Source of the DNA: a virus
Lineage: Duplodnaviria > Caudoviricetes
Length of the DNA: 43,371 nucleotides
Virus record (IMG/VR): IMGVR_UViG_3300017747_002445
Location: 1 to 43,371 of that record
Direction: 5' to 3' (one strand)
Of this stretch, positions 5,075 to 33,530 are shown piece by piece. Position numbers and translations under genes: made by a program. The notes under the pieces are model-generated. The model saw only the letters and a list, made by a program, of their open reading frames with translations. It was not told the origin of the DNA and ran no database searches. Positions within the stretch are counted from its first letter, which is position 1. Every line of letters starts with the position of its first letter.

Positions 5075-5099
5075 TTGTTTTCAACTAATTAATCAAAAA

Positions 5100-5131
5100 T
5101 TTATTACATTTGTCGTGGTTAACTAAATTTG
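5100..5131 (+). promoter_or_regulatory. Tandem -7 boxes upstream of the portal gene
   Basis: TACATTTG 5105-5112 and TAAATTTG 5124-5131, ATG at 5138. The -33 match is weak. Confidence 0.55.
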
Positions 5132-5137
5132 TAAGAT

Positions 5138-14435: not shown

Positions 14436-15163
14436 CAATTAAGAATGTAAGATATATCGCAACATCCGCCCTGTATCGATTGGGTAAAAGCCCGGTTGGT
14501 AGAGAGCTTAACTGGATGATTCAGGTTGCCATTGACTATTTCAGTGAGAAGTCTCCTTTGGATGGTAACGTGAGCCTGAGGACAATATACGGCAAGATAG
14601 ATACTGGGGCTAGAGTTTTTACCATGCCTTCTGACTGTGTTAGAATATCAAAGATAGGTTTGAGGTCAGGCAGAAGAATATGGACGCTAACAGCCGACAA
14701 CTCACTAACTTATCCCGAAAACTTTTTCAATTGCGAATCCGACCAGCAGGACGAGCTGATTATTGATGGTTTTTTCCCGACTGGATACTTTGGATATTTT
14801 TACAATTACCCAAACTATACGGTGGGTGGCGGTCGTAATGAAAACTACTACCGTGTTGATGGAAACAACATCATCTTTGATCACAACATACCAGACGGTC
14901 AGCTAGTAATCGAATATTTCTCAAACGGGACTGAGGTTAACGAAAACACCTTGATTGACGTTGCCTACGCAGAGCCTTTCCGTTTGTATTTGATGAGCGA
15001 GTACTGTTTTCATAAAGGAAACTCTTACGACAAGTCAAAATACAAGGAATTACAGATGCAGTACGAGGCGGCTCAATGGAGTGCAAACCTTTTGGTTAAG
15101 GCTCCTCGTTTGACGGAAATGATTGACGCTCTTGCACAAAGCTCAGAATTTAATTTGGGATAA
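14432..15163 (+). CDS. Tail tubular / ring protein
   Basis: MPSDCVRISKIG and LVIEYFSNG motifs, directly upstream of the muzzle gene. Confidence 0.65.
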   Translation: MTIKNVRYIATSALYRLGKSPVGRELNWMIQVAIDYFSEKSPLDGNVSLRTIYGKIDTGARVFTMPSDCVRISKIGLRSGRRIWTLTADNSLTYPENFFNCESDQQDELIIDGFFPTGYFGYFYNYPNYTVGGGRNENYYRVDGNNIIFDHNIPDGQLVIEYFSNGTEVNENTLIDVAYAEPFRLYLMSEYCFHKGNSYDKSKYKELQMQYEAAQWSANLLVKAPRLTEMIDALAQSSEFNLG

Positions 15164-18100
15164 TGAATTTTAATGATCAAATATTATTCTCTGGCGGTAT
15201 CAATGTAGATGACGAAGATCGTGCTATTCCCAAGGGAGATTACCGTGATTTTTCGTACTGTAGGCTTGGAAATACTTCTGAGCAGGGGTTTACCGTGGTG
15301 ACTTCGCAAGGGACTTTATTGATCAATAATTCATCGATAACCCAATACGACACGATTGTTGGGGCGGTTGTATGGCTCAAGAAGAACGCTATTGTGTACT
15401 TTGTGTACAATATAGATTCAGACCATCAGATATGGATGTATAACATATCGAGTCAAACTCATCAACTTATACTTACCAGCTCAGAACTTAATCTAAGTAC
15501 TCAGTATCCAATATATCACGCAAACATAATTGACGATATACTCAAATGGACTGACGGAAGATGGGATCCTGATATGTACGACGCGGACGGTAACAGGCTT
15601 TTTAATCCTCCGTTTCAAATCAATCTTCAAAAGGCCATCGACGGGGATTACAGTTCGTATTCACTTCAGACTATTGACGCTGTAAAATGGCCATTAGACC
15701 CTCCTCGCGTATCTTATTTTACTGACTCAAGCAGGAACGACAATAAGCTTCGCAACAAGTTGTTCAAGTTTATTATTCAGCCTATTTATGAAAACGGTGA
15801 GGTTGGTGTTTGGTCAATGTATTCTAACCTAGAGCTTCCACAACAGTCGGAATTGGTTTCTGGAACAAACTGGATATTTCCAAACAACAGTAACGGGATA
15901 AACATACAGTTTGAAACAGGACCTAGCATAATACGCAAGTTCAATATTGCTGTACAGCAATTTGATAAAGACTCTTTAGGCATAGAACCTCCTTTTGGTA
16001 TATTTATTCAACTGGATAAAGATCAGGACAATATACCAAGCAATTCAATTCATGTTGTGCCATTTTATGGAGGTGTTTCTACTGTTCCTGCCACAGATGT
16101 TTTCAAGAATTATGACCGTTTACCAGTAATTGCTAATTGTCAGGAGTATCTACCTACAAATCAGTTAGTGTACACTAATTTCAGAGAAGGGTACAATAAA
16201 CCTACAGAAGCGCCGTTTATTCTTGATGTTGAGGTTGATTATCAACTTAATGAAATAAACTGGAAGCCATTACCTGACTCGATTAGGGGTGTTTTAGAAA
16301 CGGATCCTACAATATTTGCCCCCGGAACACCAATGGCATTTTATGTTCAAGACGTTTTGTATGAATATCAATGGAATTTGAGTTTTGGTTTTGCTGAAGG
16401 AGACACGTTTTCGGCAACAGTGTCAACATTTGGTACATGGACATACGTTTTAACGTATCAGGACATATATAATGCGTTATTGAATGTCACTGAAGCTGAC
16501 CAAAACGCATACATAATACAGTTGCTTGGGGATAATATGACTGATTTTTTCGGTATCCCAAATGGATTTATATCCTATTTTTTCGCAAGTGGAGATAATC
16601 TCATTTATTATGCGTGTAGCAATCCGTTGTTTTTTCCTGCAAATACTGTTTTTGGACCCCCATCGGGAAACGTGCAGACCAATGCTGCTCCATCTTTAAA
16701 AGCTGGAGCCACACATGAATTTGGAATTGTGTATGGTGACAGGGCATATAGGGATAGCACAGTTTACACTATAGATTCAATGAACTTGTTTGTCCCTTGG
16801 TTTTATGATATACCAAGAGACACGCTGTTGTCTAATCAAGATAATCCGTTTACAATAAACCCTAGGTTTACTATAAACCATATCCCCCCTGTATGGGCTA
16901 CCAAGTATTGGATTGTTGCTAAACCGGCCACCGAAATACAAAGTTTTGGTCAGTATACCACAAACAATAATCAATTGGACGCTCCTGATGGAGCGGCCTA
17001 TGTTTCTTCTATTAAGCTAGACGATGTAAGCACAAATAGATACATAATATACTTAGATAGGTATTACACTACAAAAAACATAGGAGCAACTATTAGGCAT
17101 GAAATCAAAGTCGGCGATAAATTAAGGTTTGTTAGAAAAAGACCAGGCGGAGACCTGACAAGTCCCAATAGCGTACCATATTGCCCCTATGTGGAGCTGG
17201 ATGTAATAGGGTATGATCCGGTTGGTGGTAATGACGAAAGGCAGGCTGTTTATGTAAACATTTTTGATTATCAGTTAATAGAAACGGATATAAACTCCGT
17301 GTTTGGTGAGTTGTTTGGTCAACTTTTAGAGGTGTATACGCCAAGACCATCTACTGATGATACGGGAAATATTTTCGTAAGCACCTGGAGGGATGTGAGC
17401 GAGGCGATTGACATAAGAAACCCTCACACGGACGACAGAGCGCATGGAGCGCCGCCTCTTTACTATGTGTATGTGTTTGGAAGCGGACCGTATAAGTACG
17501 CCATGAATGGAGATTACACGTTTTTGGAGGGTAATTTTTACGAAATTACAATACACAATTTAGACGGAACCACGACTTCCGCAGGCTCGTTGGTTACTTT
17601 TGCAAGCTATGACCAAAACTCAAACCAGACCACTCTTGGGTTTGGTTTTTTACCCACGTCTAATGTAGCTTATCTAACAATAGACACAGATCCGTCTGCC
17701 GCCCAAACTAACCTATATCAAGTGTCAAATGATTTAAATTCATCAAGGGCAGCAGCTTTTTCTTTGGGATATGGCGATGTATATGTTAGAAGAAGAAATT
17801 ATCAGACCGGATTGAATGCAGAAAGTTCTAGCATTTATTATTACATAGAAGACTCAAACTACTCCGATTATTGGCCAAGTAATATTCACGAGATAGGCAG
17901 AACAAGAATAGAGGATCAGAATGCAAAAATGACTCACCGTCAAGCAACTGCTATTCATTCAGATTCATTCATTGTAGGCACTCAGATAAACGGATTATCA
18001 TCTTTCTCCTTGCTGAATGACAACATTGAGGATATGAATCCATTTTACGGACCCGTTGTTAGAACATATATGTCGGGTCGTGAAGGTAAAACCCTCAAAT

Positions 18101-19521
18101 GTATTCAACCAAGAAAAGAGAATTCAATATACATTCAGTTCTACCCCAACGAGGTAGGTTCCGACTCTACTGTTCGGGTTTCCAATAGAACGTTTGCGTC
18201 ATGGTTTGACTACAAATCGCTGTACGGCTGTCAGGAGCCTGGAGCTACCGCACAGCTGCCAACAGGAGACTCTGTTTATTTTGATTCAATAAACGGCGCA
18301 TTCATATTGTCTGGAGGTAACGGTCAACGCGTGATAAGCGAGGCCGATCCGGACACTGGTACTAATTATAAGTTCAGAACAAAGACTAAGCAGCTTGCAA
18401 ACCAGTATAATGAAACTCTTAATCCTCTCGTAAGAACATACGTAAACGAGAAGATGGGTGAGGTTGGCTTTGCTTTTAGATTTGGCAATCAGTACATATA
18501 CAACACCATAAGCGTATTTAATCCTTTGTCAGGGTTTAATTATTGGACAATAGCCGGTGACGTATCGTTTTTGCTTGGCTACGAGGTACAGATACTTCAG
18601 CCTAATCAAAATTATTTTTCACAGGTAACTGAGGCTAGTTACGATCCTGAAAGGGACTCGACTATAATAGAGCTTTTTGGGATTCCAGGCCCATTGGTTA
18701 ACGGTATAGAGGGAGTCCTCACTACTGTAAGCGGATTTACATACGAACACGTTGTATTTGATTACATAAACGACAGGTGGCGTTCAACGTATAATTACAA
18801 CTTCTCGAACTTTGCTAACCTAGGACAAACGCTCGTTGGATTCGGTGCTAATAATCAGTTATACCTTCATAACCAAAACAGTATAACTTTTCACGGCGAA
18901 AACTTTTTGCAGAAAATAAAGTTCGTATCAAACGAGCAGCCGATCAGTGTTAAGAGGTATCAGGCAATAACTCAGTTTGCAAACAAAACCTTTGATGTTT
19001 TAGCGTATTCTGACCCTAACCAAAGTTACATCAAGGGTATGCAGACATATATGCCTACCAATATTATCACGGTTTACGAGGGGTATTCAAGGGTTAATTA
19101 TAGAAAGAATGTCTACGACCCAAGATACCTCAACGACACTCAAACCTGCGAGTCAAGTTATGATCCGCCTACAGACAACGTAAACGGGTGGACATTCCCC
19201 GGCGACGAGTCGATACTTGGTCCAACTGTAGACCTTGAGTATACCACTATAACCATTATTCAGTCGGACGGGAAGGCGTACACGGGACGAGTTGGTGCAG
19301 CTGTATACGATTCTATTTCAGATACTACCAAGGTTACTATTATTGGCCAGGCCCCGAATAGCAATGGAGTTTCGGGTGAATGGTATTATAGCGATATTGC
19401 GATGTGGAATGGTGAGGATGTGAGAGCTGATGCTTTAACTCATGAAATAACGTATGACCCAACCATAGACCAAGAAGGTTCTGTCTTGTTTAGCGTTGGA
19501 ATACAAGGTGTTTTATCTTAA
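15163..19521 (+). CDS. Tail muzzle / stabilization (nozzle) protein
   Basis: 1452 aa beta-rich. FSGGINVDDEDRAIPKGDYRD start, LKWTDG...NPP, LVYTNFREGY, SLKAGATHEFGIVYGD, INGLSSF. Confidence 0.82.
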   Translation: MNFNDQILFSGGINVDDEDRAIPKGDYRDFSYCRLGNTSEQGFTVVTSQGTLLINNSSITQYDTIVGAVVWLKKNAIVYFVYNIDSDHQIWMYNISSQTHQLILTSSELNLSTQYPIYHANIIDDILKWTDGRWDPDMYDADGNRLFNPPFQINLQKAIDGDYSSYSLQTIDAVKWPLDPPRVSYFTDSSRNDNKLRNKLFKFIIQPIYENGEVGVWSMYSNLELPQQSELVSGTNWIFPNNSNGINIQFETGPSIIRKFNIAVQQFDKDSLGIEPPFGIFIQLDKDQDNIPSNSIHVVPFYGGVSTVPATDVFKNYDRLPVIANCQEYLPTNQLVYTNFREGYNKPTEAPFILDVEVDYQLNEINWKPLPDSIRGVLETDPTIFAPGTPMAFYVQDVLYEYQWNLSFGFAEGDTFSATVSTFGTWTYVLTYQDIYNALLNVTEADQNAYIIQLLGDNMTDFFGIPNGFISYFFASGDNLIYYACSNPLFFPANTVFGPPSGNVQTNAAPSLKAGATHEFGIVYGDRAYRDSTVYTIDSMNLFVPWFYDIPRDTLLSNQDNPFTINPRFTINHIPPVWATKYWIVAKPATEIQSFGQYTTNNNQLDAPDGAAYVSSIKLDDVSTNRYIIYLDRYYTTKNIGATIRHEIKVGDKLRFVRKRPGGDLTSPNSVPYCPYVELDVIGYDPVGGNDERQAVYVNIFDYQLIETDINSVFGELFGQLLEVYTPRPSTDDTGNIFVSTWRDVSEAIDIRNPHTDDRAHGAPPLYYVYVFGSGPYKYAMNGDYTFLEGNFYEITIHNLDGTTTSAGSLVTFASYDQNSNQTTLGFGFLPTSNVAYLTIDTDPSAAQTNLYQVSNDLNSSRAAAFSLGYGDVYVRRRNYQTGLNAESSSIYYYIEDSNYSDYWPSNIHEIGRTRIEDQNAKMTHRQATAIHSDSFIVGTQINGLSSFSLLNDNIEDMNPFYGPVVRTYMSGREGKTLKCIQPRKENSIYIQFYPNEVGSDSTVRVSNRTFASWFDYKSLYGCQEPGATAQLPTGDSVYFDSINGAFILSGGNGQRVISEADPDTGTNYKFRTKTKQLANQYNETLNPLVRTYVNEKMGEVGFAFRFGNQYIYNTISVFNPLSGFNYWTIAGDVSFLLGYEVQILQPNQNYFSQVTEASYDPERDSTIIELFGIPGPLVNGIEGVLTTVSGFTYEHVVFDYINDRWRSTYNYNFSNFANLGQTLVGFGANNQLYLHNQNSITFHGENFLQKIKFVSNEQPISVKRYQAITQFANKTFDVLAYSDPNQSYIKGMQTYMPTNIITVYEGYSRVNYRKNVYDPRYLNDTQTCESSYDPPTDNVNGWTFPGDESILGPTVDLEYTTITIIQSDGKAYTGRVGAAVYDSISDTTKVTIIGQAPNSNGVSGEWYYSDIAMWNGEDVRADALTHEITYDPTIDQEGSVLFSVGIQGVLS

Positions 19522-19532: not shown

Positions 19533-20171
19533 ATGCCATTAGGACCATTAGGATTAGGATTGATTACAGGCGGTATAGGTGTTGGCCTTTCTGCTGTAGA
19601 TATCATTCGTGGTAATCGAATGAGAAAACGTGCTGAAGAAAATCTTCGCAATTTGAAGCGCCCAATGATGACTGTTCCTGAAGCTCAGGCGCAGCAAGTT
19701 GCGCTGGCTAAAATGGGAGCCATGCAGGATATGCCGGGGTATAACTTGGCTATGCAGCAACAGCAATTGGGAATGCAACAATCGCTTGGAAATGCGTCAA
19801 GGGCCGCAACTTCTTCACAGGACTTGCTTTCAGTCGCTACGGGAGGCATGGCTGGCCAGCAGGATGCTCTTGCTCAATTAGCGATTCAAAACGCCCAGTT
19901 TAAACAAGAGGGTATGCAAAACTACCAAACAGCTCTTAGCGGGCTGGCTCAGACACAACAAACTATGTTTGATGTCAATCAGATGCAGCCATATGCGCTG
20001 AAATATCAGACATATTCGAACAACATTCAGCAAGGCAGGGATTTGGTAAATTCCGGAATGCAAGGTTTGGGGTCGTCAGTAGGTTCCGCAATGCCTTTTG
20101 TAGCATCAGGCGCAGGCGCTCAGGGTTGGTTGAACTTTAAAAATTTTGGTTTCGGAGGCGGAACCGTATGA
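19533..20171 (+). CDS. Small ejection / pilot-type internal virion protein
   Basis: Gly-rich hydrophobic termini with a Q/M/A-rich core, first gene after the nozzle. Start moved to ATG 19533. Confidence 0.65.
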   Translation: MPLGPLGLGLITGGIGVGLSAVDIIRGNRMRKRAEENLRNLKRPMMTVPEAQAQQVALAKMGAMQDMPGYNLAMQQQQLGMQQSLGNASRAATSSQDLLSVATGGMAGQQDALAQLAIQNAQFKQEGMQNYQTALSGLAQTQQTMFDVNQMQPYALKYQTYSNNIQQGRDLVNSGMQGLGSSVGSAMPFVASGAGAQGWLNFKNFGFGGGTV

Positions 20172-20175
20172 TAAA

Positions 20176-21396
20176 ATGGAAGAAAACGTAAACGACTTTA
20201 CTCAGTCACCTATTCCCGAATTCGGGTCTAGTATGCAGCCTGTCGTTCAGGGTGTACTGTCTGGTCTTTCTACCATAGGCGCAGGAGTGGCTAATGCGGC
20301 TCAAAAAGAGGAACAAAGAAAAAGAGAGCTTCGTCAAAGACTCGAAACAAGCCCCGATGTGTATGATTTGGAGCAGAGTTATATAGACACTGCTGTTAAA
20401 GATTTAAATGATACCATTACAAAAAGAATTGCAGACAATACTTTTGATATGACCAAGTCTTTGGAAGAAGATTTGGAGCTTAGACAGAAAAGTCAATCTA
20501 TTCAAAATTCGGCTAAGATATCTCAGGCAAATCAAGCATACTACGAGAAAAAAAAAGCTGAATATCTAGAGAGTCCTGAAAAATGGGTTGCCGCTGATTT
20601 TGATGCATGGGAAAAGGAATACACAGATCCTACACTTACAATTGAAGAGCGTCAGAAGTTAAGAATAGGCAAGGATCCATTGACTGAAAAGGAAGATGTA
20701 TACGACCTTGTTCAAAGACCTATATTCCCTGGATTTAGCGAGGAAAGAGACGAGAAGGGTGATTACGTTAAGTATGTAGATGAAGAAAACCACGCAGCCA
20801 GTATAGAGCGTTATATCCAGTCTGGCAAAGGAGCCAAACTGTACGATCAATACAAGGAGGGGAATGAGACAAAGGCTGATTTCGCTAAGAGAATGGCGGA
20901 TGATTTCCAAGAGAACTATTGGCCAGACATTACTAAGCACCATATTCCTCGCGCACGCAGACAGGGTGGGGAGACAAAAACAACCCAATGGGTTCCAACT
21001 CCAGCCAGAGAAGATCAGTATGGAGGAGATCCTAGTAGATATAACGCGGTTACATTTAAGCCTGGAAGATCTGCTGTTACTTTGAAGGATGATGATGGAA
21101 AGATTTGGACAGTTAAATCTATGTATGCCCACTACGATTCCGCAACTAACGCTTATGTGTTAAAGGCTGAAGTAAAAGATACGGAGCTTGAGGCTGTTGA
21201 GACAAGGATGTTCAAGTTGAGTCCAAATCCGGGAGAATTAGGAAACGTAAACTATCAAGCAATTCAAGGCGTTCTTCCTCCAGGAGTTAGTTTGAAAGAT
21301 TTGTTCAATAAGCCAATAAATTCACCAGCTCCAAAGGGTAAAACCCCAGCCGCCAAGACTACTGGCGGATTCCCTTCACAAGCACCTAATGATTAA
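20176..21396 (+). CDS. Internal virion / ejection protein (putative)
   Basis: 406 aa from ATG 20176. Amphipathic N-terminal segment, charged helical body, no Cys. Confidence 0.55.
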   Translation: MEENVNDFTQSPIPEFGSSMQPVVQGVLSGLSTIGAGVANAAQKEEQRKRELRQRLETSPDVYDLEQSYIDTAVKDLNDTITKRIADNTFDMTKSLEEDLELRQKSQSIQNSAKISQANQAYYEKKKAEYLESPEKWVAADFDAWEKEYTDPTLTIEERQKLRIGKDPLTEKEDVYDLVQRPIFPGFSEERDEKGDYVKYVDEENHAASIERYIQSGKGAKLYDQYKEGNETKADFAKRMADDFQENYWPDITKHHIPRARRQGGETKTTQWVPTPAREDQYGGDPSRYNAVTFKPGRSAVTLKDDDGKIWTVKSMYAHYDSATNAYVLKAEVKDTELEAVETRMFKLSPNPGELGNVNYQAIQGVLPPGVSLKDLFNKPINSPAPKGKTPAAKTTGGFPSQAPND

Positions 21397-21398
21397 AT

Positions 21399-24300
21399 AT
21401 GCCAAAAGGAACACCATACTCTAATAAACTGCATGGCATCTTGAAGGAAGCCTATGGAGAATCATTTGTTTTGACTGAAGACCAGTTCTTTGATAAGATC
21501 ACAAATGATCCTGCGTATCAGGAAAAGATATACGGTATCTTCAAGGATGTTTATAAGGATGATTTCATTCTTAACCCCAAGCAGTTTTATGATAAGTTAA
21601 AAAAAAAAGAGTCTGGTACAGAAAATTTGCAAGTGCCTGCACAGCTGGGTGGAAAAGCTTTTACGCTGAGTACAGAGGAGGTTGAGCCTCCCAAGAAAAA
21701 GCCTTATCAAGACATTTCTTATAAAAAGGAAGCGCTGCAAACAGATGCGGTTTCTAACCTGGTTCCCAATAAGATACAGCAAACCGTAAAGGCCACAGGC
21801 AAGGTTGCTGCTGTAACTAATCCTCGCGTCATTCAAGATAAGGCTACAGAGGCTGTTTTCGATATAGTCACAAAGTCTGACCCTGTTCAAAAAAGTCTTT
21901 TTGATTACGAGGTTCAGTCAGGAGAATACGAGAGACTCAACAAGTTGAATGGGGCTTCGGAAAGGGAAGTTATTGATAATATTCGAAGATATGACCCAGA
22001 CCTATGGAAAGAGCTTTCTCAAGGCATTACTGACAACATGGTTGGTAGCGGTGGTCTTGGTGAAAATCTTAGCATTAATGATTTTCGTACAGCGTCTAAA
22101 GCTGTATATGAGAGATACAAAGCTTTGTTGGAATCAACGAAAGATAAACTTTCGGACTCCACCAATAAAGCAAACGTCCAGATAGACGAAATTGTTAAAT
22201 CCAGCATTAATGAAAACAATTTCAAGGACTATATCAAGTCTGCTGTTAAGGTAAACCAAGAGGTTGCGACAATAGACGGCAGGAGCGTTAGCGCTCCCAA
22301 GACCTTAGATATAGGCGAGTATACTGTTGATATCGATAAGATAGACGACCTTGCTACAGAAATTGTTAAATCGTATGACTTCGTTGACGACGGGGGCAAG
22401 GCTTGGCAAAACATTTTCAACAAATTAAAGATTGAGGCAGAGCATTACATCATCGATGAAAAGGCTAATGCAAAACTCCAGAAAGACGAGCCAGAGCTTT
22501 ACGCTAAGTGGAATCAGTTAAGAGAGGAATCCGCAAAGATTTCAGGCATGACCCCAGAGCAGTTTGCTGACTACTGGAAGGATGACGACATGATTGCTGC
22601 TCGCTATGAGAATCTCGCAAAGAGTCTTGGCGATCAATACATAAAGGACGCTCAGATGGAGGTGGCTGCTTTCATGAGTGATTACACCTACAATAGCGAC
22701 AAACTAAAAGCTGAGTACGATAATAAGAAAAACGATGTAAGCGCCAAGGCGGACAAGCTCGCTGAGATGTACAGACTTGGCAACATCGATCAACTCACGT
22801 ATACCGCCGCAATAGATCAGCTCGACATAGAGATGGCCGAGGCGTATGATAAGTACGAGAAGGCATTTCAGGGTTTAGAGCCATATATCAAGTCAGCCAA
22901 CGAAGTCTACTCAAGGTACAACAGCAAAATTAGAATGGAGTTGGAGATGTTGCAGGAGAAGGCTGACAAAGAAATGTCCCAGGCTCTTGATCAATATTTA
23001 CTATCATTCGAAGATCCTCAGTTGATTGCGGACATCAAGAGTAAGTACAACACAGCTTACAAAGAGGCGGCGTTCGAAAGGAAGGAAGCGATTGGTGATT
23101 CCGTTTATAATTATTCAGGGCCTTTGGGTACGTTCTTGCGTTCAACCAAGGGAGCCTTGGGCGGCGTAATAGGCGGTTATGGTGGTTATTTCAATAGCAA
23201 GCTTTTGAAGGTTCTTGGCGAAACAGTTGCCTCGGATAATATAATGCCGGAAGCACGGTCCAAAGAGTTTTCTGACTTGCTTGATATGCAGAACTTCACC
23301 AACCTCAGTGGTCAACTAGCAGGTTCTATGGCGCCAGGAATGGTTGCTACGGGTATTGTAACTGCCGCTACAGGGGCAGCAGGAGCGCCAGCAGCTGTTC
23401 AACTTGTCGTGGGTGGATTTACCGGTTGGTTGACCGAGTCTATGGATATAGCTGGCCGAGCATACAATGATATGTTTGAGAAGACTGGCGGTGATGTTCA
23501 AAAGGCTTCGGAGGCGTTTAGGGCTTCATTCAATTCGCAATACGACTTGATGGGACTCTATGCGTTTGACGCATTGCCGTTTGTTGGTGATGCTTTGTCA
23601 AAGATTGCCAGCAAAGCCAAGCGTGTTGCAGTAGGGGCGGGAGCGGAATACGTAACGGAAGGAGCGCAGGAATTCCATCAAAACATAGCAGAAGAAAATA
23701 TCTCAGAGGGCAGAGATGCGTGGGAAGGATACGGCAAAAAGCTTTTTGACCCCAACCGTCACAAGGAGAACGCAATTATGCTTGCTCCAACGCTCATTAT
23801 GGGTGGTATTGGTCAGCTTAGGTCAAAAGGCCCTACAGAGACGGCTGCTGCTGCGTATGATGCGATAGAACAAAAGACCAAGCTCAACCCCGCGTTCAAG
23901 GATCAGGAGCGTCAATATATTCAGAACCTTGTATTCGAAAAAAACACGGATTTTGCTAAGGGCGTAATCTCATCTTTGTTTGCGTCAGGCAAAATCAACG
24001 AAGAGAAGGCAACCGATATGATTATCGAAGTTGAGAGAGCGCAGCGTATAAAAGATAGTTCTGATGCGGCAAAACTCAAGGGAGATCAGCGACTTGTTTA
24101 TTCGTTCTTTACTGCTCGCGCAGAGGATGCAAGTAGAAACGCTCGCATCTTCCACGAAGACCCCATCATGTCAAAGGTATTCGAGCAACAGGCTAAGGAT
24201 TACCAACAGGCGGGTATCGACTTCCTCAACGGCAAGAAGCCAGAGTTGTATTCAATAACCTACGCTGACGGAAGTCAGAATCTCATGACTCAGTCTGATA

Positions 24301-27300
24301 TGGCTGACATCATGGACAATGAAGAAGCTCTTGACGTTATCAGCAGTGGCAATATCCAAATCTCTTCTTACGGAAGCCAGACTGGATCAAACTCACTCGA
24401 CTTATTGCGTGAGAAGGTTGCCACTTACCAAGAGAATAAGAAGGTAACTGAAGAGAAGAAGGTATCCGGCGGCAATTATAACAACACGATTGATGTGCTT
24501 GAGGCCATCAAGAATGACCAGGATTACAAGGGCAAGATTACAGACCATCCTGCTTGGGAGACATTGACCGCAGAGGAGAAGGATCAAGTTGTTCTTTTGT
24601 CTGAGAAATTGTCGAGATACGAAAGAGAGATGAAGGCCGTTACTTCCGTTGGTGTTGAAAGCACTAGCCTGGAAGAGAAAATCAAAACGGCACAACAAGA
24701 TATTTCTAACATATTAAACCAAGAGCCAAATGATAACAAAAACATCCCAGGGGTATCAAGTGAAATCGGAGAAGGGAAAAAACCTGTCGAAGAAAAACCT
24801 GTCGAAGGCGCAGGCACAGAAACGGCTGAAGCAGGTGGAGTTCTTCAAACACAAGAAGAAATAGAGGCCAAAAAGGCTGCGGTAGAAAAAGCTCAAAAAC
24901 AATTAGATGGATTAAACTCTAGAAGAAATCCAAAGGCTAATCATCCATTTTTCAATGTTGGACAAAAGCATAATGACGGCAACAAATACATAGTAAAAAA
25001 TTCTGAAGATAATCGAACCGACACGACTAAAGACGGCGTAGAGGTCATAACTAAAATACTTTCCCCAGCCGAAGTGGATGAGAGCGGCAAAATGACTAAG
25101 GCCGCTGAGGTGGAGATAGGTATATTTGATTCGTATGAACAGGCACAGGAATATGTAAATAGCCAGTACAATAAATACAAGGCTATAGCGGATGAAAAAT
25201 TAGCTAAAGCTAAAGCAGAGCTACCCACCGTAGAAGCCCCTCAAACAGAAGCCGCCCCAGAAGTAACTACCGAAACCGCCCCTGCCGAGAAAAAGAAAAC
25301 AACCAAACCAAAGGCTGAGAAGAAAGCTGAAAAGCCAAAGAGACAACAAGTAGAGGAAAGCCTCAAAAAGCTCCGCGACCAAGGACTGCTCGTAACTGCC
25401 GACACATCACTACTGGCAAAGGCAAAGAAGCTCGTAGGCAAGAAGCCTAAGTTGGTCCCAATGTCCGATAAGGAAATTGCGGCGCAGATGAAATTGCTTG
25501 ATGCAATGGCGAAGGTGTGGAAGGGCGTTACGGGGCAAGACAACTACTACGAGGAGTTCATCAACGAAGTGAAGAAGGGCGATCTGAAGAAACTTCAGGA
25601 CATGGGTGGCGTGTTGTATCAAGAGACTGAAGAGATCCCAGAAACAGGGGCTGTAGAGGCTATTCCCGTTATGTTTAAACCTCGTGTAAGTCTTGCGATT
25701 TTTAATCTACCTCCATTTAAAGCAATGGAAGGTAAGATAATTTCCGCCCAAAACTTGAAGGACATGATTAAGACCAAGGCTAAACCACGAGGTGAAAAGC
25801 CTGTTCTTGAAGACGTTTTAAATTATCCAAAATACAGAGACGAGAAAAAGTTTTCATATGACGATTTCAAAAAAGATGTTGAAATTGCCGTAATGAACTT
25901 TGAAAGGATTTACACTCCTAAATGGAATGACTATGGAATGCCTAATCTGGGTCCTAATAGAGACATATATGGACAGGACATAAGAACCGTAGTCCTCAAT
26001 GCTCCTGTAAGTCATGGTTATATGGGACACTGGGACAACATCTATAATCCATCTTTTTTTAGTAATAGAAAATGGGTAGTCAGAGAGATTCCGAACACAC
26101 CTGGGAACTTTGTTGCTTGGGATGAAAATACTCCGGGAACAGTTAATCAAGACAACCTCATGAATTACGTGGGAACAGCTGGTTCAAGAGAAGCGGTTGA
26201 AGCGTGGATAGAGGACCAGAAAAATATGTCAACAGGAAAGGCGCCACTAAAAGTGGGTATGTTTGGCCATATTCGAACATGGTACAATGATGACACTAAG
26301 CAATTCTATGTTGCTGAACTTCAAAGTGACGCGCATCAGAAGTATAAAAAGCAAATGAAGCGTCCATTGGATGAAAAGGCTATGGCATCAACTATGGGCC
26401 GAGAGGATCTTGTAAATTACATTAAAAATACTTATTACAAAAACGTATTGGCTAAGGTTGAACCATACAGAAATGCTATGAAGGAAATCTTAGACCATAT
26501 AGGAGTAAGAGAAAACGATGGTGTTTATGAACTTTCAATAGGATATGGAGTAGATACAAGATATGTTCCGCTTATTTCAGCTGAGGCGCTAAATAATATT
26601 GCGGAAGATTCGATGAAGGCTTTTTTCGAAAATACTAATGATTATTACCTAAGACAAGACTACGGCGGTTTAGGATCAGACTCTCCTCTTCGGGATCAAT
26701 TTCAAGAACTTATTTTAGCAAACTTCATAGGCCGATATTCTAGATATGTTGAGCCTGGAAATGAATACGAGGACAAACAATATCCAAATGGAGCATTCAT
26801 ATTTTTGGGTCGTCCTAGAATATACACTGATTATGCTTTTGATTACAAATCCGTTACAACCCCCCGTATTATTGAGTTTAGAAGTGTAGAAGAAGCCACG
26901 GATTTTTATACTACGACATACGATCAAGCAAAAGAGACGATTGAAGGATTAGCATCTATTGTTAGAATAGGCACTAGGTTCGCGCAAGATGTCAAGCCGT
27001 TACAAACCTGGATCGAAGAAGAGGCTTCCGTAAAAGTAGAAATGCTAAAAAAACTTGGCAAGTTTACTTTTGAAAAACAGTTTTTGGATTTGGACAAAAA
27101 CTATATGACGCGACTTACTCGTGAAGCAATAAGATTAGCTGCTGAATCTGGAGCAGAAACAATGCGTATACCGACACCAAGAACCATATCTTACATAGAG
27201 CAATATGTTAACTATTCTAGTACTACGCCGTTGAACGCAAGGGCTAGTAATAGAAGTATACCATATGAAACTCCAGACGGGACAGATGCTGATTTGAAAC

Positions 27301-28826
27301 CAGGAGACATCATAAAAATAGAAGATGAAGAATACATTGTTTTAGAGGCAGACGCTACTGACATTAAGGTGGCTGAAAAGAGTCGAGTAAATACAATGAG
27401 TATTTATGAAGAAGCCAACGAAATGGCTTGGAATGACGTTGAAGAACTCAAGTATCAATTCCGTAGAGCTTTAGAAAGAGCTGGCAGAACATTCGACTGG
27501 AAACGAATAACACAAGAAGATATAGACGCTGTTGAGGATGATGAGTTCGACTATTACCCCAGTCTGCAAGAAACTATGCAGAATGAGATGGATAGAAGCG
27601 CACGAACTTATGATATTTTAGATGAAGATGGGGAGGTTATCGAAGCAGATGTGTCTTATATAACGTGGTCTGACTTTGATGATGAAATAGTTCAAGATTT
27701 AAGGGAGGAAAATTTAAGTAGAGGTTCGGATTTGTTTGCCAATACAGCTTATCAAGTTGCAACAAACAGTGACGATTACCTTGTTTTAGATGACTGGGGT
27801 GTTGATGAAATCGATTATAAACAACCCGATCAATATGACGAGATTGAACCCGAAGAACAGCCAGAATCAGAAACAAAAACAAAAACGCCAGATGGTATAG
27901 ATCTTTCTAGGGAAAAATATTTTGAAGAAAAATACCCCGAAATCATTGCAAAAAAACTTAGTGATGATGATTTTGAAAATGCGATGGTTGTTGTAAAAAA
28001 ATACTTTGATTACCGAAATGATTTCAAGAAACTTCGTCCAGATACCAAAGAGGTTATGGACGAGAACGGGAATGTATGGCTTGAAACGAAAATTACCCCA
28101 GAAGACTTAGATAATCCAATCATCGCGTTCCAGAAAGAAGGTGACAAGGCAAAGGCAGCCGTTGATTTCTTAGATGAGGGAAGAGCTACTGTACACATTT
28201 TCAAAGGAGCCGACATCTCGTCTCTCGCACACGAAATGACTGGTCACATAGGTCGCCGGGTTTTGGAAAGACTTGCTGGTCTGAATGCAGACTTCGCCAA
28301 GGATTACGAAGCAACTAAGAAGTGGGCTGGAGTAACAGGGGATTTGTGGAACTCTATCGCTGAAGAAAAGTTTGCACGTGGATTTGAACGATATCTTCGT
28401 TCGGGTAAGGCCCCAGACAAATCTTTGCAGTCAGTATTCAACAAGCTGCGTGAATGGTTATCGAACATCTACGAACAAATCAAGGGAGGAAGCATTGATG
28501 TAAATATCACACCTCGTATGAAGAAGGTGTTTGACAACCTGCTTGCATACAAGCCTGAACCAGCGGCGGAGACTCAGAAAACAAAGAAAGAGACGAAGAC
28601 GAAGGAGTCCAAGCCTAAGCCTAAACAGGAGATTCTTGACAAGGCAAAGAGACTCGCCGATTTGTACCGCGAGATAAAGTCAGGCAATGTATCTGTACGA
28701 CCTGAACTTAATGACCTTTTGGAACAAAACCCAAAATTGAATTACCTTTACAAAAATCTTCCAAGCATCAATTCCAAGTTGGAAAAGGATGGATTAATAA
28801 CCAAAAAAACTGACGGTTGTCCGTAA
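21399..28826 (+). CDS. Giant polyvalent-type ejected protein with membrane-like segment, GNAT-like region and zincin-like metallopeptidase
   Basis: Gly/Ala hydrophobic helices at about 23120-23820, GHIR...AELQSD (26256-26330), REAIRLAAESG (about 27120), HEMTGH (28230-28247) followed by EEKFARGFERY. Confidence 0.7.
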   Translation: MPKGTPYSNKLHGILKEAYGESFVLTEDQFFDKITNDPAYQEKIYGIFKDVYKDDFILNPKQFYDKLKKKESGTENLQVPAQLGGKAFTLSTEEVEPPKKKPYQDISYKKEALQTDAVSNLVPNKIQQTVKATGKVAAVTNPRVIQDKATEAVFDIVTKSDPVQKSLFDYEVQSGEYERLNKLNGASEREVIDNIRRYDPDLWKELSQGITDNMVGSGGLGENLSINDFRTASKAVYERYKALLESTKDKLSDSTNKANVQIDEIVKSSINENNFKDYIKSAVKVNQEVATIDGRSVSAPKTLDIGEYTVDIDKIDDLATEIVKSYDFVDDGGKAWQNIFNKLKIEAEHYIIDEKANAKLQKDEPELYAKWNQLREESAKISGMTPEQFADYWKDDDMIAARYENLAKSLGDQYIKDAQMEVAAFMSDYTYNSDKLKAEYDNKKNDVSAKADKLAEMYRLGNIDQLTYTAAIDQLDIEMAEAYDKYEKAFQGLEPYIKSANEVYSRYNSKIRMELEMLQEKADKEMSQALDQYLLSFEDPQLIADIKSKYNTAYKEAAFERKEAIGDSVYNYSGPLGTFLRSTKGALGGVIGGYGGYFNSKLLKVLGETVASDNIMPEARSKEFSDLLDMQNFTNLSGQLAGSMAPGMVATGIVTAATGAAGAPAAVQLVVGGFTGWLTESMDIAGRAYNDMFEKTGGDVQKASEAFRASFNSQYDLMGLYAFDALPFVGDALSKIASKAKRVAVGAGAEYVTEGAQEFHQNIAEENISEGRDAWEGYGKKLFDPNRHKENAIMLAPTLIMGGIGQLRSKGPTETAAAAYDAIEQKTKLNPAFKDQERQYIQNLVFEKNTDFAKGVISSLFASGKINEEKATDMIIEVERAQRIKDSSDAAKLKGDQRLVYSFFTARAEDASRNARIFHEDPIMSKVFEQQAKDYQQAGIDFLNGKKPELYSITYADGSQNLMTQSDMADIMDNEEALDVISSGNIQISSYGSQTGSNSLDLLREKVATYQENKKVTEEKKVSGGNYNNTIDVLEAIKNDQDYKGKITDHPAWETLTAEEKDQVVLLSEKLSRYEREMKAVTSVGVESTSLEEKIKTAQQDISNILNQEPNDNKNIPGVSSEIGEGKKPVEEKPVEGAGTETAEAGGVLQTQEEIEAKKAAVEKAQKQLDGLNSRRNPKANHPFFNVGQKHNDGNKYIVKNSEDNRTDTTKDGVEVITKILSPAEVDESGKMTKAAEVEIGIFDSYEQAQEYVNSQYNKYKAIADEKLAKAKAELPTVEAPQTEAAPEVTTETAPAEKKKTTKPKAEKKAEKPKRQQVEESLKKLRDQGLLVTADTSLLAKAKKLVGKKPKLVPMSDKEIAAQMKLLDAMAKVWKGVTGQDNYYEEFINEVKKGDLKKLQDMGGVLYQETEEIPETGAVEAIPVMFKPRVSLAIFNLPPFKAMEGKIISAQNLKDMIKTKAKPRGEKPVLEDVLNYPKYRDEKKFSYDDFKKDVEIAVMNFERIYTPKWNDYGMPNLGPNRDIYGQDIRTVVLNAPVSHGYMGHWDNIYNPSFFSNRKWVVREIPNTPGNFVAWDENTPGTVNQDNLMNYVGTAGSREAVEAWIEDQKNMSTGKAPLKVGMFGHIRTWYNDDTKQFYVAELQSDAHQKYKKQMKRPLDEKAMASTMGREDLVNYIKNTYYKNVLAKVEPYRNAMKEILDHIGVRENDGVYELSIGYGVDTRYVPLISAEALNNIAEDSMKAFFENTNDYYLRQDYGGLGSDSPLRDQFQELILANFIGRYSRYVEPGNEYEDKQYPNGAFIFLGRPRIYTDYAFDYKSVTTPRIIEFRSVEEATDFYTTTYDQAKETIEGLASIVRIGTRFAQDVKPLQTWIEEEASVKVEMLKKLGKFTFEKQFLDLDKNYMTRLTREAIRLAAESGAETMRIPTPRTISYIEQYVNYSSTTPLNARASNRSIPYETPDGTDADLKPGDIIKIEDEEYIVLEADATDIKVAEKSRVNTMSIYEEANEMAWNDVEELKYQFRRALERAGRTFDWKRITQEDIDAVEDDEFDYYPSLQETMQNEMDRSARTYDILDEDGEVIEADVSYITWSDFDDEIVQDLREENLSRGSDLFANTAYQVATNSDDYLVLDDWGVDEIDYKQPDQYDEIEPEEQPESETKTKTPDGIDLSREKYFEEKYPEIIAKKLSDDDFENAMVVVKKYFDYRNDFKKLRPDTKEVMDENGNVWLETKITPEDLDNPIIAFQKEGDKAKAAVDFLDEGRATVHIFKGADISSLAHEMTGHIGRRVLERLAGLNADFAKDYEATKKWAGVTGDLWNSIAEEKFARGFERYLRSGKAPDKSLQSVFNKLREWLSNIYEQIKGGSIDVNITPRMKKVFDNLLAYKPEPAAETQKTKKETKTKESKPKPKQEILDKAKRLADLYREIKSGNVSVRPELNDLLEQNPKLNYLYKNLPSINSKLEKDGLITKKTDGCP

Positions 28827-28832
28827 TAAAAT

Positions 28833-29324
28833 ATGAAACCAAATACGTTAGATCAAGCAGTAGTCAATTTGATGTTGCCTCGTCTTGAGGATGAGTTAAA
28901 CGCCTTTTATTTTTATCGAGCCGCCAGCAACTGGTGTCAAGGCGTTGGTTTCTTCAAGGCGGGTGAATTTTTCGCTAATGAGTCTAATGACGAGCTGGAA
29001 CACGCCAAGAAGATTGAGAAGTACTTGGTAGACTGGAACGTGGATCCGGCATTGCCATCAATACCAAAGCCACCCATCAAGTTCACTGGTCTGCTTGATG
29101 TTATCGAAAAGGCGTACAGAATCGAATACGAATTGTACGAAGCATACGAAGACACGTCAATGGCTCTGTTCAACATGGATCTGTGCGTGTTTGATTTTTT
29201 CCAAGAGTTCAGAACTTTGCAAAAGAATGCTGTTGCTGAGTATAGCGACAAGTTGAATATGCTTGAGGGTGTAACACCCGCTGGCAAGTTGGAAATGCTT
29301 CTGTTGGAGAAAAAATTGTTCTAA
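28833..29324 (+). CDS. Ferritin-family protein
   Basis: E21, Y28, E54, H57, E98 and Q130 match the ferroxidase-centre spacing of non-haem ferritin. Has the LPSIPKP loop. 163 aa. Confidence 0.9.
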   Translation: MKPNTLDQAVVNLMLPRLEDELNAFYFYRAASNWCQGVGFFKAGEFFANESNDELEHAKKIEKYLVDWNVDPALPSIPKPPIKFTGLLDVIEKAYRIEYELYEAYEDTSMALFNMDLCVFDFFQEFRTLQKNAVAEYSDKLNMLEGVTPAGKLEMLLLEKKLF

Positions 29325-32300
29325 TGGCCAAAAAGAAAGGACCTTGTAAACTTACCGTAAAAGGTAAAGGAGATACTAAACCTCGTGAGATGACTTTCGA
29401 GGAATACATCGCCATGCTTCATGATGGCGGGTTTGAGGATTTAGTTAATCAAGGGGCCATCGATCCTGATGAATTGCGCGGGGATAATCCATTTGGGCCA
29501 GAAGCTAAGGCAGAAACCGCTGAACCACCCATGCCGCCGGACGTCCCTCAATCCCCTGAAGACAAGCAGCAGTCAAACGAAGAGGAGAGAAGCACAAGGA
29601 CGCTGATTAAACGTGCTACTGACGATCGCGAGGCTTTAAAGGCCAAGGTAGAACAATACGGTTTAGATCGTAAAGTTGAGAATAGAAATGATGCCAAGGA
29701 ATTGGCACAGGCATTTATAGAGGATGTAGGGTTTAATGATGCGGAATACGCCGCAGCTACTATGCTTACTGGTGCGGCAAAAAGCTATGTGTATGCTGAG
29801 TTGATTGACGCTCTTGAGGTTGGCTTGTCAAACGCCAAGACTCCTGAAGAGATAGACTCCATACTGAGCAAGCAGGCCGAGCTTCTTCATATTTGGGATA
29901 CTCAAATTGCAGATGCCGCAAGAGAGATTGGCGCCCTGGCAAGCATTTATCGTGATTCTTTATTTGGCTATAAGGCTGATGTAAAAATCAGAGAATACAA
30001 GAAGGCATCAGGCGGATATATCAGCCCAGAGATGGAGGCTAAATTCCGTGCTTACGAGCAACAAATTAAAGACCTTAATGCTAAACTCAAGGAAGCAGAA
30101 CGCAAGGCCGCACAGGAGCGTGAGGATAAACTCATGGCCAACATTGCCACGTCTGTATCGACTGAGAAGAAGAAGGCCAAAACATTTACCGACAAGGCAA
30201 AGCAAGTTGCTGACAACTTCAGAAAGCTAAAGGGCAAGCCTATCCAATTTCGTGATGCGAATGGTAATCCGATAGATATACAAAGAATGGGTCTTTCGTT
30301 CGATGACATCATCGAGCTTGGAGCCAAGGCTATTGAAGCAACAGGAAAGATAGCGGACGGTATAGCCGCAGTCATGGAGAAGCTGGCCGAGCAGGAATGG
30401 TTTTCCTCTTTGTCTACCGTTGACCAGGAGGCTGTTCGGTCGCAGGTAGAGGGGATGTTGTCCGAAACTACAACCGGAGACATCAAGATCCCCAAGGGCA
30501 TGATTAAGGTAATGGTTGAGATGGGCAACAATACCATCGACAGCCTTACGGACGCGATCATGGCTCAGTTGCAGGAACAATACCCTAATGCTACCAGAAG
30601 AGATTTCCGTGACGCCATAACAGGTTACGGCAAAGAGGTAAGCAAAACCAGAAGCGACATCGACCGTGAGATCGCGGTAATGAAGCGTATCGGTGCAAAG
30701 ATGTCTCAACTTGAGGATCTCAAGCTTGGCATTATAACCGAAACCAATCCTGTTACCAAGACGCAAAAGCAGGAAGAGGAGAAGAACTTGGACAGAGAGA
30801 TAAAAGACCTGTTCAAAGAACTGGGCGTGACTGGAGAGAAGAAACTTGACCAGGCCAAGAAGAATGTAAACCGCACCATACAAGACCTTCAGAAAAGGAT
30901 TGATGACGGCCAATATGCTCCCAATCCAAAAGAAAAGCAATACACCTCAGACGCCGAGCTTGATGCGCTTAACGATGAGAAGAAGGCCCTACAAGATCAG
31001 CTGAAGGAATTGCAAGACCAGGTTGGATACACTGAAGAAAAGAAACTCAACCAGGCCAAGAAAAATATTGAGAAGCGGATAAAGGAGCTTGAGGAAAAGC
31101 TTGCAAGTCGCGACTTTACGAAGAAGGAAAAGCAACCTGCATACACAGCTGATGACGAGATCCGGGATCTCAGAGCAAGACGCCAGGAATTGCAGGATGA
31201 AGTTGATATTGAGATATTCAAAGAGAAGCTCAAGCAGCGTGGATGGAAGGGGACTTTTGCTGATTATGCAAAGGACATCTTCAACGTAACCCGTAACGCG
31301 ATGGCTACACTCGACTTGTCGTTTGTGCTTGTTCAGGGTAAACTTATTTCCGGAGGTATTCTGCATCCTGTTACCGCGTTTAGATCGGCGTTACAAGCTG
31401 CCAAGCAAATGTTCAGTGAAAGCAATGCTCGTCAATGGAATACGTTCATCCGTTCACAGGAGTATTATGACGAGATGAAGAAGGCTGGTCTTTCTTTGAC
31501 TGAGTACGATGCTAAGGTAGAGGCTCAGGAAGAATTGATGTTGACTGGTCCTATCTTAAATGCTTTATGGGCAATGGCTGTATCTCCTTCAAGAATTGTC
31601 AGCAAGGAGGCTTACGAGGCGGCCAAGAGACTCAATCCAATGAACGCATTCTCACGGGCGCAAGTAGCGTACTTGAATACGTTCCGCATTTTGCGATATA
31701 GGGAATTGGCAGACAAACTGAAAGCCGAAGGAAAGAGTATTAACACGGATCTGCAATCTTATAAAAACGTAGCAGACGTAATCAACACGTTTTCCGGACG
31801 CTCTGGGCTTGGTAAGATTGACCAAAACCCAATGTTGTCTAAGGCTCTTGCTTACTCGTTTTTCTCTCCGCGCAACTGGGCTAGTATATTGAAAACATCT
31901 TCCCCAATCGCATTGTTTTGGGCTTACAAACTGCGTGATACAGGCTCTTCAAGAACAAAGATGTTTTCGGTAGCTCAAAAGACTGCGCTATTCGATTTCA
32001 TGGGAGCAATGGGAAGTACCGCAGCTATCGTGGCAATGGCTGCAATGAGGTTGAATGACGATGATGACGATGATTCAGAAGTAGTATTTGATCCACTCAG
32101 TTCATACTTCGGGCAAATCCGATTGGGTAATACTTACGTAGACCCGTGGGCGGGTCGTATGCAAACGATTGTATTTACAAGTCGCTTTATAACGGAAGCA
32201 ATGTATAGGGGTGGTACAACGGGTCCTCTTGGTGTTGATAATCGACCAACAAGAGCTGTGTTGTTGTGGGAGTATATGTCTCGCAAGCTTCACCCAAGCT

Positions 32301-33031
32301 TGTCAATGCTTTACGATTACGGCATGACCTCTCAGGCTGAGGGACAACCTCGCATGACTCCTTACGGTGAAGAATGGTCATGGATGGAAAGAGCAAAGGA
32401 GTCGGTTACTCCTATGGTTTACAATATGCTTAGTGAGGTTCATGAGGAGCAACCTGGTCATATAGAAGCCTTCCTTATGCCACTTGGTTATTTGGGTATG
32501 GGTGTTCAAACATACCAACCAAAAAGACGAGATGTTAACCGATACAAGAATGTGGAGACCAAGGAATTCATGAAGATGTTCAAGCCTTCAGGGGTTTCTA
32601 TGATCAAGTCGGAAGAGTTCATGGGTGTACTGGACAAAGAGCAGATGCTTGAGATGAATACGCTGTATCAAGACAAAGCGGAGATGTTGCTTGATCAATA
32701 CGCTAAGATAGTTCCTGATGACTTGAGTGAAATCAGGGTAAGCGCTGAACGTCGCAGGATAACTTACCCTGAACGTCAAGAGGCCATCGCCCTTTTGCGT
32801 GATCAAAAGATGCCAGAGACTGAGGAGAATATCAAGAAGATTGCCCTAGAGCTAGAACGCAAGAGTAAGATTGGTTTTAAGATAGATGAGTTCGCCAGCA
32901 AAGCAAAAGATGCAGCCATAGAAGAATACCTTATGTCAAAAGGTAAAGAAGTGCCTAAACCATACATAGGTGCTATGAAAAGGTACGAAAAAAGGCTGAA
33001 ATACTACACAGACAAAGCCCTTGAAAAGTAA
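29324..33031 (+). CDS. Large ejected protein: coiled coils plus a C-terminal helical/hydrophobic domain (LPD38-like, tentative)
   Basis: 1235 aa. INTFSGR...FFSPR...DPLSSYFGQIRLGNT...KLHP...TPYGE pattern seen at the C-termini of large phage virion proteins. Confidence 0.6.
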   Translation: MAKKKGPCKLTVKGKGDTKPREMTFEEYIAMLHDGGFEDLVNQGAIDPDELRGDNPFGPEAKAETAEPPMPPDVPQSPEDKQQSNEEERSTRTLIKRATDDREALKAKVEQYGLDRKVENRNDAKELAQAFIEDVGFNDAEYAAATMLTGAAKSYVYAELIDALEVGLSNAKTPEEIDSILSKQAELLHIWDTQIADAAREIGALASIYRDSLFGYKADVKIREYKKASGGYISPEMEAKFRAYEQQIKDLNAKLKEAERKAAQEREDKLMANIATSVSTEKKKAKTFTDKAKQVADNFRKLKGKPIQFRDANGNPIDIQRMGLSFDDIIELGAKAIEATGKIADGIAAVMEKLAEQEWFSSLSTVDQEAVRSQVEGMLSETTTGDIKIPKGMIKVMVEMGNNTIDSLTDAIMAQLQEQYPNATRRDFRDAITGYGKEVSKTRSDIDREIAVMKRIGAKMSQLEDLKLGIITETNPVTKTQKQEEEKNLDREIKDLFKELGVTGEKKLDQAKKNVNRTIQDLQKRIDDGQYAPNPKEKQYTSDAELDALNDEKKALQDQLKELQDQVGYTEEKKLNQAKKNIEKRIKELEEKLASRDFTKKEKQPAYTADDEIRDLRARRQELQDEVDIEIFKEKLKQRGWKGTFADYAKDIFNVTRNAMATLDLSFVLVQGKLISGGILHPVTAFRSALQAAKQMFSESNARQWNTFIRSQEYYDEMKKAGLSLTEYDAKVEAQEELMLTGPILNALWAMAVSPSRIVSKEAYEAAKRLNPMNAFSRAQVAYLNTFRILRYRELADKLKAEGKSINTDLQSYKNVADVINTFSGRSGLGKIDQNPMLSKALAYSFFSPRNWASILKTSSPIALFWAYKLRDTGSSRTKMFSVAQKTALFDFMGAMGSTAAIVAMAAMRLNDDDDDDSEVVFDPLSSYFGQIRLGNTYVDPWAGRMQTIVFTSRFITEAMYRGGTTGPLGVDNRPTRAVLLWEYMSRKLHPSLSMLYDYGMTSQAEGQPRMTPYGEEWSWMERAKESVTPMVYNMLSEVHEEQPGHIEAFLMPLGYLGMGVQTYQPKRRDVNRYKNVETKEFMKMFKPSGVSMIKSEEFMGVLDKEQMLEMNTLYQDKAEMLLDQYAKIVPDDLSEIRVSAERRRITYPERQEAIALLRDQKMPETEENIKKIALELERKSKIGFKIDEFASKAKDAAIEEYLMSKGKEVPKPYIGAMKRYEKRLKYYTDKALEK
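30823..31215 (+). repeat. Two-copy 67-aa coiled-coil repeat within the 1235-aa protein
   Basis: GVTGEKKLDQAKKN...YTSDAEL versus GYTEEKKLNQAKKN...YTADDEI, with a 201-nt period. Confidence 0.8.
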
Positions 33032-33440: not shown

Positions 33441-33512
33441 GGTTACTGGTAATACATAGTGTTTAAGTGTGTAGTTTTCCCTGGGCAAAGGCCTGGGGAT
33501 TTTTTTATATTT
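33441..33512 (+). ncRNA. Candidate ~70-nt GU-rich small RNA or attenuated leader
   Basis: Runs from the promoter to the TCCCTGGGC-AAAG-GCCTGGGGA hairpin (two G-U pairs) followed by T7. Confidence 0.55.
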
Positions 33513-33530
33513 GCAGGAGAAAACGAAGTT

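Follow-up and report, generated by a model that had tools for sequence, protein, structure and literature searches.

Single cysteines at the facing ends of two giant phage cargo proteins probably mark the halves of a split, disulfide-locked domain

We analysed a 43,371-nucleotide stretch of caudoviricete DNA (IMG/VR record IMGVR_UViG_3300017747_002445, positions 1 to 43,371), here called the window at its full length, and more specifically a locus in which the genes of two giant proteins, A and B, flank a ferritin gene. Each giant contains a single cysteine (Cys), and these two residues lie at the protein ends that face each other across the ferritin. The features of the locus, with the Cys codons taken from the translations of the open reading frames (ORFs), are the following:

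21399..28826, + strand: giant cargo protein A, 2475 amino acids (aa), polyvalent-type, one Cys (2474)
28653..28823, + strand: C-terminal clasp module of A (C-module; helices, one strand, x-C-P-stop), from alignment A1 and a profile match at residues 2419-2475
28818..28820, + strand: Cys2474 codon TGT (...KKTDGCP-stop)
28833..29324, + strand: ferritin, 163 aa (PF00210, E 2.9e-17, 63 bits against a cut-off of 24.5)
29324..33031, + strand: giant cargo protein B, 1235 aa, one Cys (8), its start overlapping the ferritin stop (TAATG)
29324..29509, + strand: N-terminal clasp module of B (N-module; M-A-x(0-5)-C, beta-hairpin, helices), from alignment A2 and a profile match at residues 1-62
29345..29347, + strand: Cys8 codon TGT (MAKKKGPC)

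The first-pass annotation of the window had ascribed one penultimate Cys to the 2475-aa protein, one Cys at residue 8 to the 1235-aa protein and none to two smaller ejection proteins, and these counts are correct: residue 2474 is the only Cys in ORF 21399-28826, residue 8 is the only one in ORF 29324-33031, and the 212-aa and 416-aa upstream ORFs hold none. The 15 other window proteins contain 63 Cys in 9,126 aa, from which about 26 would be expected in the 3,710 aa of the giants, and the chance that both single Cys fall at most 10 residues from the facing ends is ~3e-5. This probability, together with the conservation described below, led us to reject chance placement. Cys depletion itself is known for ejected proteins, according to the accessible text of PMC11445570, and the non-trivial part is the terminal placement and its conservation. 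A lipoprotein signal peptide was also rejected, as MAKKKGPC and its relatives have the Cys at positions 3-8 and no hydrophobic region.

Giant A carries a zincin-like HExxxH motif (HEMTGH, residues 2278-2283); its residues 2236-2383 match phrog_9880, and the zincin-like region matches giants of BPP-1 (bbp10), Carin1 and Leptolyngbya phage Lbo-JY46. No ART-PolyVal, LPD or ddrB-ParB Pfam domain was found in the two giants of the window; orthologous giants of relatives carry ART-PolyVal, LPD23, ddrB-ParB and GNAT domains. Judging from gene position and family, A and B are likely packaged and injected into the host.

Each Cys tips a conserved end module of ~55 aa, and the modules persist while the protein bodies are swapped, as in L011, L013 and L016, three loci that match the window only at the module. 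All 120 C-module homologues listed, out of 148 matches and among proteins of 106-2000 aa only, end in C-P, as NCP (65), GCP (39, the form of the window), DCP (8), ECP (5), LCP (2) or SCP (1). Together these 120 proteins hold 144 Cys in 111,536 aa, 120 at position -2 and 24 at position 5-6. For the N-module, 150 of 157 matches were listed, and 142 of these 150 have the module at the N-terminus with one Cys within the first 12 residues; six repeat-like proteins, one mis-started protein and P0254, a fusion discussed below, were set aside. The N-module profile had no match among PDB sequences (best E 0.25). Neither module contains a second invariant Cys or His, and the N-module His, present in the window and in 68% of the 142 sequences, is Tyr, Lys or Gln in many relatives.

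These residues bear on the chemistry of the link, which the first-pass annotation had left between a disulfide and a metal bridge. Two Cys sharing a Zn or Fe ion would have the advantage of working in the reducing cytoplasm, and the frequent N-module His would suit such a site. However, the modules offer no second invariant Cys or His, the His itself varies, and the bond in the solved analogue, cyanophage A4 (Anabaena phage A-4L), is a disulfide. We therefore favour the disulfide half of that proposal and consider a metal site hardly credible. Still less probable is a ligation of the two ends into a single polypeptide, with chemistry of the split-intein or thioester kind, an explanation suggested by the N-C-P end of 65 of the 120 C-modules, which resembles the Asn/Cys junction motif of inteins, and by the viability of fused relatives: the Asn before C-P is not conserved (GCP in the window) and the Cys of the N-module occupies position 3-8 instead of 1. 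Pfam gave no match to a Hint or intein family, and a split intein in particular was rejected on the position of the Cys, the unconserved Asn and this missing Hint match.

Both modules (28653-28823 and 29324-29509) end in a helix followed by L-x-x-x-G-x-I, and the aligner confused them; the mixed alignments A3 and A6 mis-aligned the halves and were not used. The clasp domain may be an internal duplication.

Locus scans seeded on the ferritin, the N-module and a DNA motif (the last yielding four loci, L067 and L069 real and two by chance) gave 91 distinct ferritin loci. Two giants are present in 49 of them, and in every one of the 49 a Cys lies in the last three residues of the upstream giant and in the first eight of the downstream giant, so both facing Cys are kept across the relatives. 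Over their 141,412 aa, the 98 giants concerned have 2 internal Cys beside 108 terminal ones. Ten of the 49 upstream giants, which carry Cys at their two ends, have an N-module of another type (MAKGC... in nine cases), as expected of a middle link. The head-to-tail coupling through terminal Cys proposed in the first-pass annotation is supported by both patterns. Eleven further loci have a single giant before the ferritin and none after it, and the visible part of that giant is Cys-free; the rest are cut on one side (7) or hold ferritins in other contexts (24). The single giants of elemoF, phi38:1, Panino, phi13:2, Carin1, L173 and L175 also have no Cys, and BPP-1 bbp10, again a single giant, has one internal Cys.

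Several junctions show additional features. Small middle pieces of 186-685 aa with a Cys at each end (P0011, P0012, P0136, P0205, P0213, P0255 and P0286) suggest trains of at least three links with short cassettes. The first junction of most three-part loci holds a gene starting MEKKL(L/V)EVEG with CxxC at 41-44 (L001:1173-2126 and orthologues), for which the L005 copy gave no Pfam match; the first junction of L152 holds no ORF of at least 110 aa. Five unrelated genes lie between the first and middle giant in L080 (4026-8056), a 445-aa gene follows the ferritin in L106/L151 (10584-11921), and in L106 the partner giant is one gene further along. Junctions tolerate insertions.

The ferritin sits between the giants' genes in all 49 split loci, overlapping the start of B, and loci found without a ferritin seed also have it (L045, L047, L048, L049, L054, L058, L065 and L069). 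Its E21, E54, H57, E98 and Q130 align with what we take to be ferroxidase-centre positions and are kept, the presumed site-C positions being changed, and it retains two Cys in 43 of the 49 split loci. These observations would fit a ferritin dedicated to making the link, as its oxidant or source of iron, in line with the first-pass suggestion that the ferritin supplies the redox or metal chemistry. However, that suggestion is not supported by the wider comparison. The clasp pattern is kept in A-4L, phi14:2, crAss001 and Lbo-JY46, whose whole records gave no PF00210 match (14 of 14 controls were positive), and of these Lbo-JY46 has a homologous N-module (independent E-value, iE, 1.8e-9). Moreover, downstream of every one of the 11 Cys-free single giants there is a ferritin that has both its Cys, five of the 49 split loci have only one ferritin Cys as called, and the ferritin residue C35 has an aligned Cys counterpart in ordinary bacterial ferritin. 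In three-part loci the first junction is either empty or occupied by genes other than the ferritin. Since the ferritin has no match in these phages that keep the pattern, is absent from first junctions and is present after Cys-free giants, it is not required for the clasp, and we regard its role as the dedicated oxidant or iron source as very unlikely. Most likely it is a co-transcribed auxiliary gene sitting in the junction, where it may have a local helper role.

Phage relatives of the ferritin also occur away from any giant (L107, L114-L123, L127, L128, L156, L161, L166 and L167), where they follow either a ~446-aa gene or a 142-aa gene that ends like what we presume to be a dUTPase.

The first-pass annotation had further likened the two halves to one split polyvalent protein, and Cys-free natural fusions agree with this: P0254 and P0271-P0274 are fused homologues with no Cys at all. 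In P0254 the N-module match is internal and directly follows the C-module match. Of the 18 matches to the P0254 junction, 14 are split N-termini and four are P0271-P0274 (2614-3180 aa). Both giants of L012, and likewise those of L023, align colinearly with P0274, and in alignment A7 the halves abut without gaps. The two junction sequences that occur have different split forms as their nearest relatives, pointing to two separate fusion events; no DNA with the fused junction was found among viral and metagenome contigs.

AlphaFold2 predicts the fused junction (two sequences) as one domain, with a mean predicted local distance difference test (pLDDT) of 84 and 90. The model has a strand at 44-47 from the C-module, a turn at K48-D49 and strands at 50-53 and 56-59 from the N-module. 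The Cys pair of the split forms corresponds to columns 49-50, i.e., to the two-residue beta-turn of the fused domain, and in this model a disulfide would stand in for that turn. Fold searches with the fused domain found nothing in BFVD at E 0.001 or among PDB chains at Z >=5, which shows neither a new fold nor a lack of kin; they did not list A4 gp27 or gp26, and the ESM Atlas yielded no usable match. The positions, their conservation and co-occurrence and the fusions are read from sequence, and the fold of the fused domain is predicted.

Co-folding of the window's own ends, as the first-pass annotation had envisaged, gave a score of 0.32 against 0.02 for the best control, with at least 93% contact agreement between runs and a partner pLDDT of at least 65, which favours pairing weakly: 116 of 157 solved pairs passed the mark, as did 2 of 215 mismatched pairs, but only 18 of the 157 solved pairs, together with both mismatched ones, passed it at or below 0.60. 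Split-gene halves can pass co-folding by likeness to solved structures; the searches of PDB sequences and chains found no such structure, although one may exist.

We consider it very probable that the two ends form a linked, disulfide-locked split domain. Its halves would be the final ~55 residues of A and the initial ~55 of B, corresponding to a small domain that fused relatives have uninterrupted; they would reassemble in the virion, be locked by a Cys2474-Cys8 disulfide and tether A and B head to tail. We infer pairing, oxidation, tethering and reduction as follows. The modules would pair non-covalently by fold complementation during head assembly in the reducing cytoplasm, and the bond would form on oxidation, probably after lysis. 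According to the accessible part of PMC10172136, cargo must partly unfold through the tail; the bond would survive this unfolding and the oxidising periplasm, A drawing B behind it from N to C, and host thiol reductases could open it in the cytoplasm. The near-invariant Cys in otherwise Cys-purged proteins suggest a need for them under unfolding. The clasp would also permit the exchange of effector cassettes as separate genes, with the cargo still travelling like one polyprotein.

That the link acts in ejection by tethering the cargo is, in our judgement, likely, with less assurance than the split domain itself. The main rival is a purely structural staple, in which the split domain and its disulfide set 1:1 packaging and stabilise the cargo core of the head, with no role in ejection order. 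All the evidence presented here is equally compatible with such a staple. Furthermore, the A4 report, in its accessible text, assigns the bond a stabilising role in the pre-ejectosome's outer layer and goes no further than suggesting a chain reaction (PMC12002296), and disulfides stabilise parts of the crAss001 tail, according to the accessible description of that virion. A staple, however, need not run strictly from C-terminus to N-terminus in gene order, yet 49 of 49 loci do; a peptide bond replaces the link in the fusions; and packaging could rest on non-covalent pairing alone. We therefore hold the staple to be unlikely and retain the tethering of ejected cargo as the preferred reading.

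Several observations weigh against the disulfide-locked tether as a whole. In this phage the bond, the geometry of the interface and the location in the virion are derived from sequence and models, and the AlphaFold2 models were used for secondary structure only, packing across the junction being judged by the continuous strand pattern. The fusions rest on gene calls made by others. The profiles contain the Cys, so the counts of 120/120 and 142/150 are biased toward Cys (the scarcity of internal Cys is unaffected by this bias), and 19 of the 142 N-module proteins carry further non-terminal Cys. The 11 single-giant loci, nine of which are cut at the 5' end, group in the ferritin tree as two lineages, of which one lies within the split forms, and hence amount to two contrasts, not eleven. 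In most three-part loci the Cys of the first giant lies 73-315 residues before the end and is therefore not terminal in the primary product. The crAss001 protein gp50 is an exception with its internal Cys. Finally, the A4, phi14:2 and crAss001 termini gave no match above 5 bits to the module profiles, for which short modules may be too diverged, and these systems are therefore analogues, not shown homologues; the Cys-clasp device may have arisen more than once.

The first giants of L001, L002, L004, L005, L006, L094 and L152 have a lone Cys (…KVEVK-C-PP) followed by these 73-315 residues. The tails open with K-A-x-x-G and include G-x-S-H-x-x-G-G, with a further, similar A-x-x-G close by, and a cut by a head protease at that point would make the Cys near-terminal.

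We give about an even chance to a broader proposal: podoviruses across several host phyla would eject their cargo as a reversible covalent train, using orthogonal, self-sorting, disulfide-locked mini-domain couplers that replace a beta-turn. Cassettes could then be shuffled, split and fused freely, with ejection order and stoichiometry kept, and the host cytoplasm would uncouple the train.

The window represents a podovirus-like phage's virion module, running from terminase, portal, tail and nozzle-like genes through two small Cys-free proteins to giant A, the ferritin and giant B. The features upstream of A are:

2612..7534, + strand: terminase large subunit and portal (context), from family matches
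15163..19521, + strand: virion structural protein, likely tail nozzle (context; phrog_14478, E 5e-31)
19533..20171, + strand: small Cys-free protein, likely first ejection protein, from gene position, with no family match
20146..21396, + strand: Cys-free protein, likely second ejection protein, from gene position, start codon uncertain

The gene at 19533..20171 occupies the position of phi13:2 gp124 and phi38:1 gp99, both annotated as virion proteins. The nearest cultured relatives of the portal, at 21-24% identity, are the Bacteroidota phages elemoF, phi13:2, phi38:1, Panino and Gundel, and Crassvirales are absent among the portal matches (20 records, from elemoF, phi13:2-like, phi38:1-like, Panino and Gundel phages). 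No match was found for the putative capsid, the ferritin or the junction DNA among cultured phages, or for protein B and a 216-aa downstream gene among viral contigs. The D[FY]DxD motif was not found in the four window proteins of more than 1000 aa, in a record that is ~66% complete, and [DG]xD[FY]DxD was not found in 227 (redundant) Cys-poor ORFs of at least 800 aa. As the giants lack the RNA-polymerase motif, we do not file the window under Crassvirales.

Four neighbouring observations concern the window and its relatives. A 266-aa gene without a family match (1165-1965) lies two ORFs before the terminase, near the position where phi13:2, elemoF and phi38:1 have an annotated GroES-like co-chaperonin. 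The gene after giant B (33459-34181), conserved in close relatives and without a family match, ends in F-C-x-F-A-x(4)-C. A 2441-aa Gly/Ser/Thr-rich protein (34178-41503) matches DUF5907, varies in length among relatives and is likely a fibre. In phi13:2 (L040:26119-32366), the 87 aa annotated as gp126 look like the beginning of the giant gp127, whose first residue is Leu; this split is possibly a frameshift in the record.

No paper that we found states a general terminal-Cys rule, in a searched literature that leaves out most subscription papers and all supplements, and one bond of this layout, in A4, is already published. New here are a lineage whose giants have no polymerase motif, fused forms from which the clasp emerges as a split domain, evidence that excludes the ferritin as a necessary part, and a homologous N-module in a cultured phage. 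The ordered exit of several giant proteins through one narrow capsid channel is described as an open question in the accessible text of PMC10172136. A covalent head-to-tail link is a concrete answer, testable in cultured phages, and the fusions show what the link replaces. A self-pairing, locking pair of ~55-aa modules would be a compact, redox-reversible protein coupler, and the analysis separates the ferritin from the clasp mechanism.

The closest known system is A4, for which the accessible text reports a disulfide between gp27 Cys1715 and gp26 Cys5, determined by cryo-electron microscopy (PMC12002296). These Cys are the only ones of gp27 (1717 aa) and gp26 (1114 aa), which are products of adjacent genes, so that A4 resembles the window in having large ejection proteins with a single Cys each at the facing ends. 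It differs, in the same text, in that a long C-terminal helix inserts in a cleft and no gene lies between, and that text reports one bond and no general rule.

The cargo block of the Crassvirales phi14:2 and crAss001 also places giant cargo proteins after two smaller ones. The Cys lie in phi14:2 gp078 (-1), gp077 (3 and -2) and gp076 (3; GenBank tags), and in crAss001 gp47 (-3), gp50 (5, 1334 and -9) and gp49 (5). Unlike the giants of the window, phi14:2 gp77 and crAss001 gp50 carry the DFDxD RNA-polymerase motif. Fused polyprotein forms are mentioned for Crassvirales in the accessible part of bioRxiv 2020.03.07.982082; in the accessible parts of that preprint and of the description of the crAss001 virion, the cargo Cys are not mentioned.

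Lbo-JY46 (PP438436) encodes XAI97382 (1552 aa, only Cys at -1) beside XAI97381 (2748 aa), whose only Cys, Cys4, lies in the homologous N-module, matched at the iE given above with a wider profile and at 0.028 with the first profile. This phage, for which our literature search found no paper naming it, differs from the window in having no ferritin match, a C-module unscored by the profile and a cyanobacterial host.

The virion RNA polymerase of Schitoviridae (N4, DEV) is likewise a Cys-purged giant ejected protein, and the accessible text of PMC11445570 attributes the purge to passage through the periplasm; unlike the giants of the window, it is one polypeptide with no terminal Cys. The large polyvalent proteins (Iyer et al. 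2017) are, in the accessible text of PMC5512222, injected giants built of several domains, among them a zincin peptidase with HExxxH, a motif shared in zincin-like form by giant A, and the words "cysteine" and "disulfide" are absent from the main text of that paper. The polyvalent proteins described there are single polypeptides, whereas in the lineage of the window the corresponding cargo comes as two or three clasped gene pieces.

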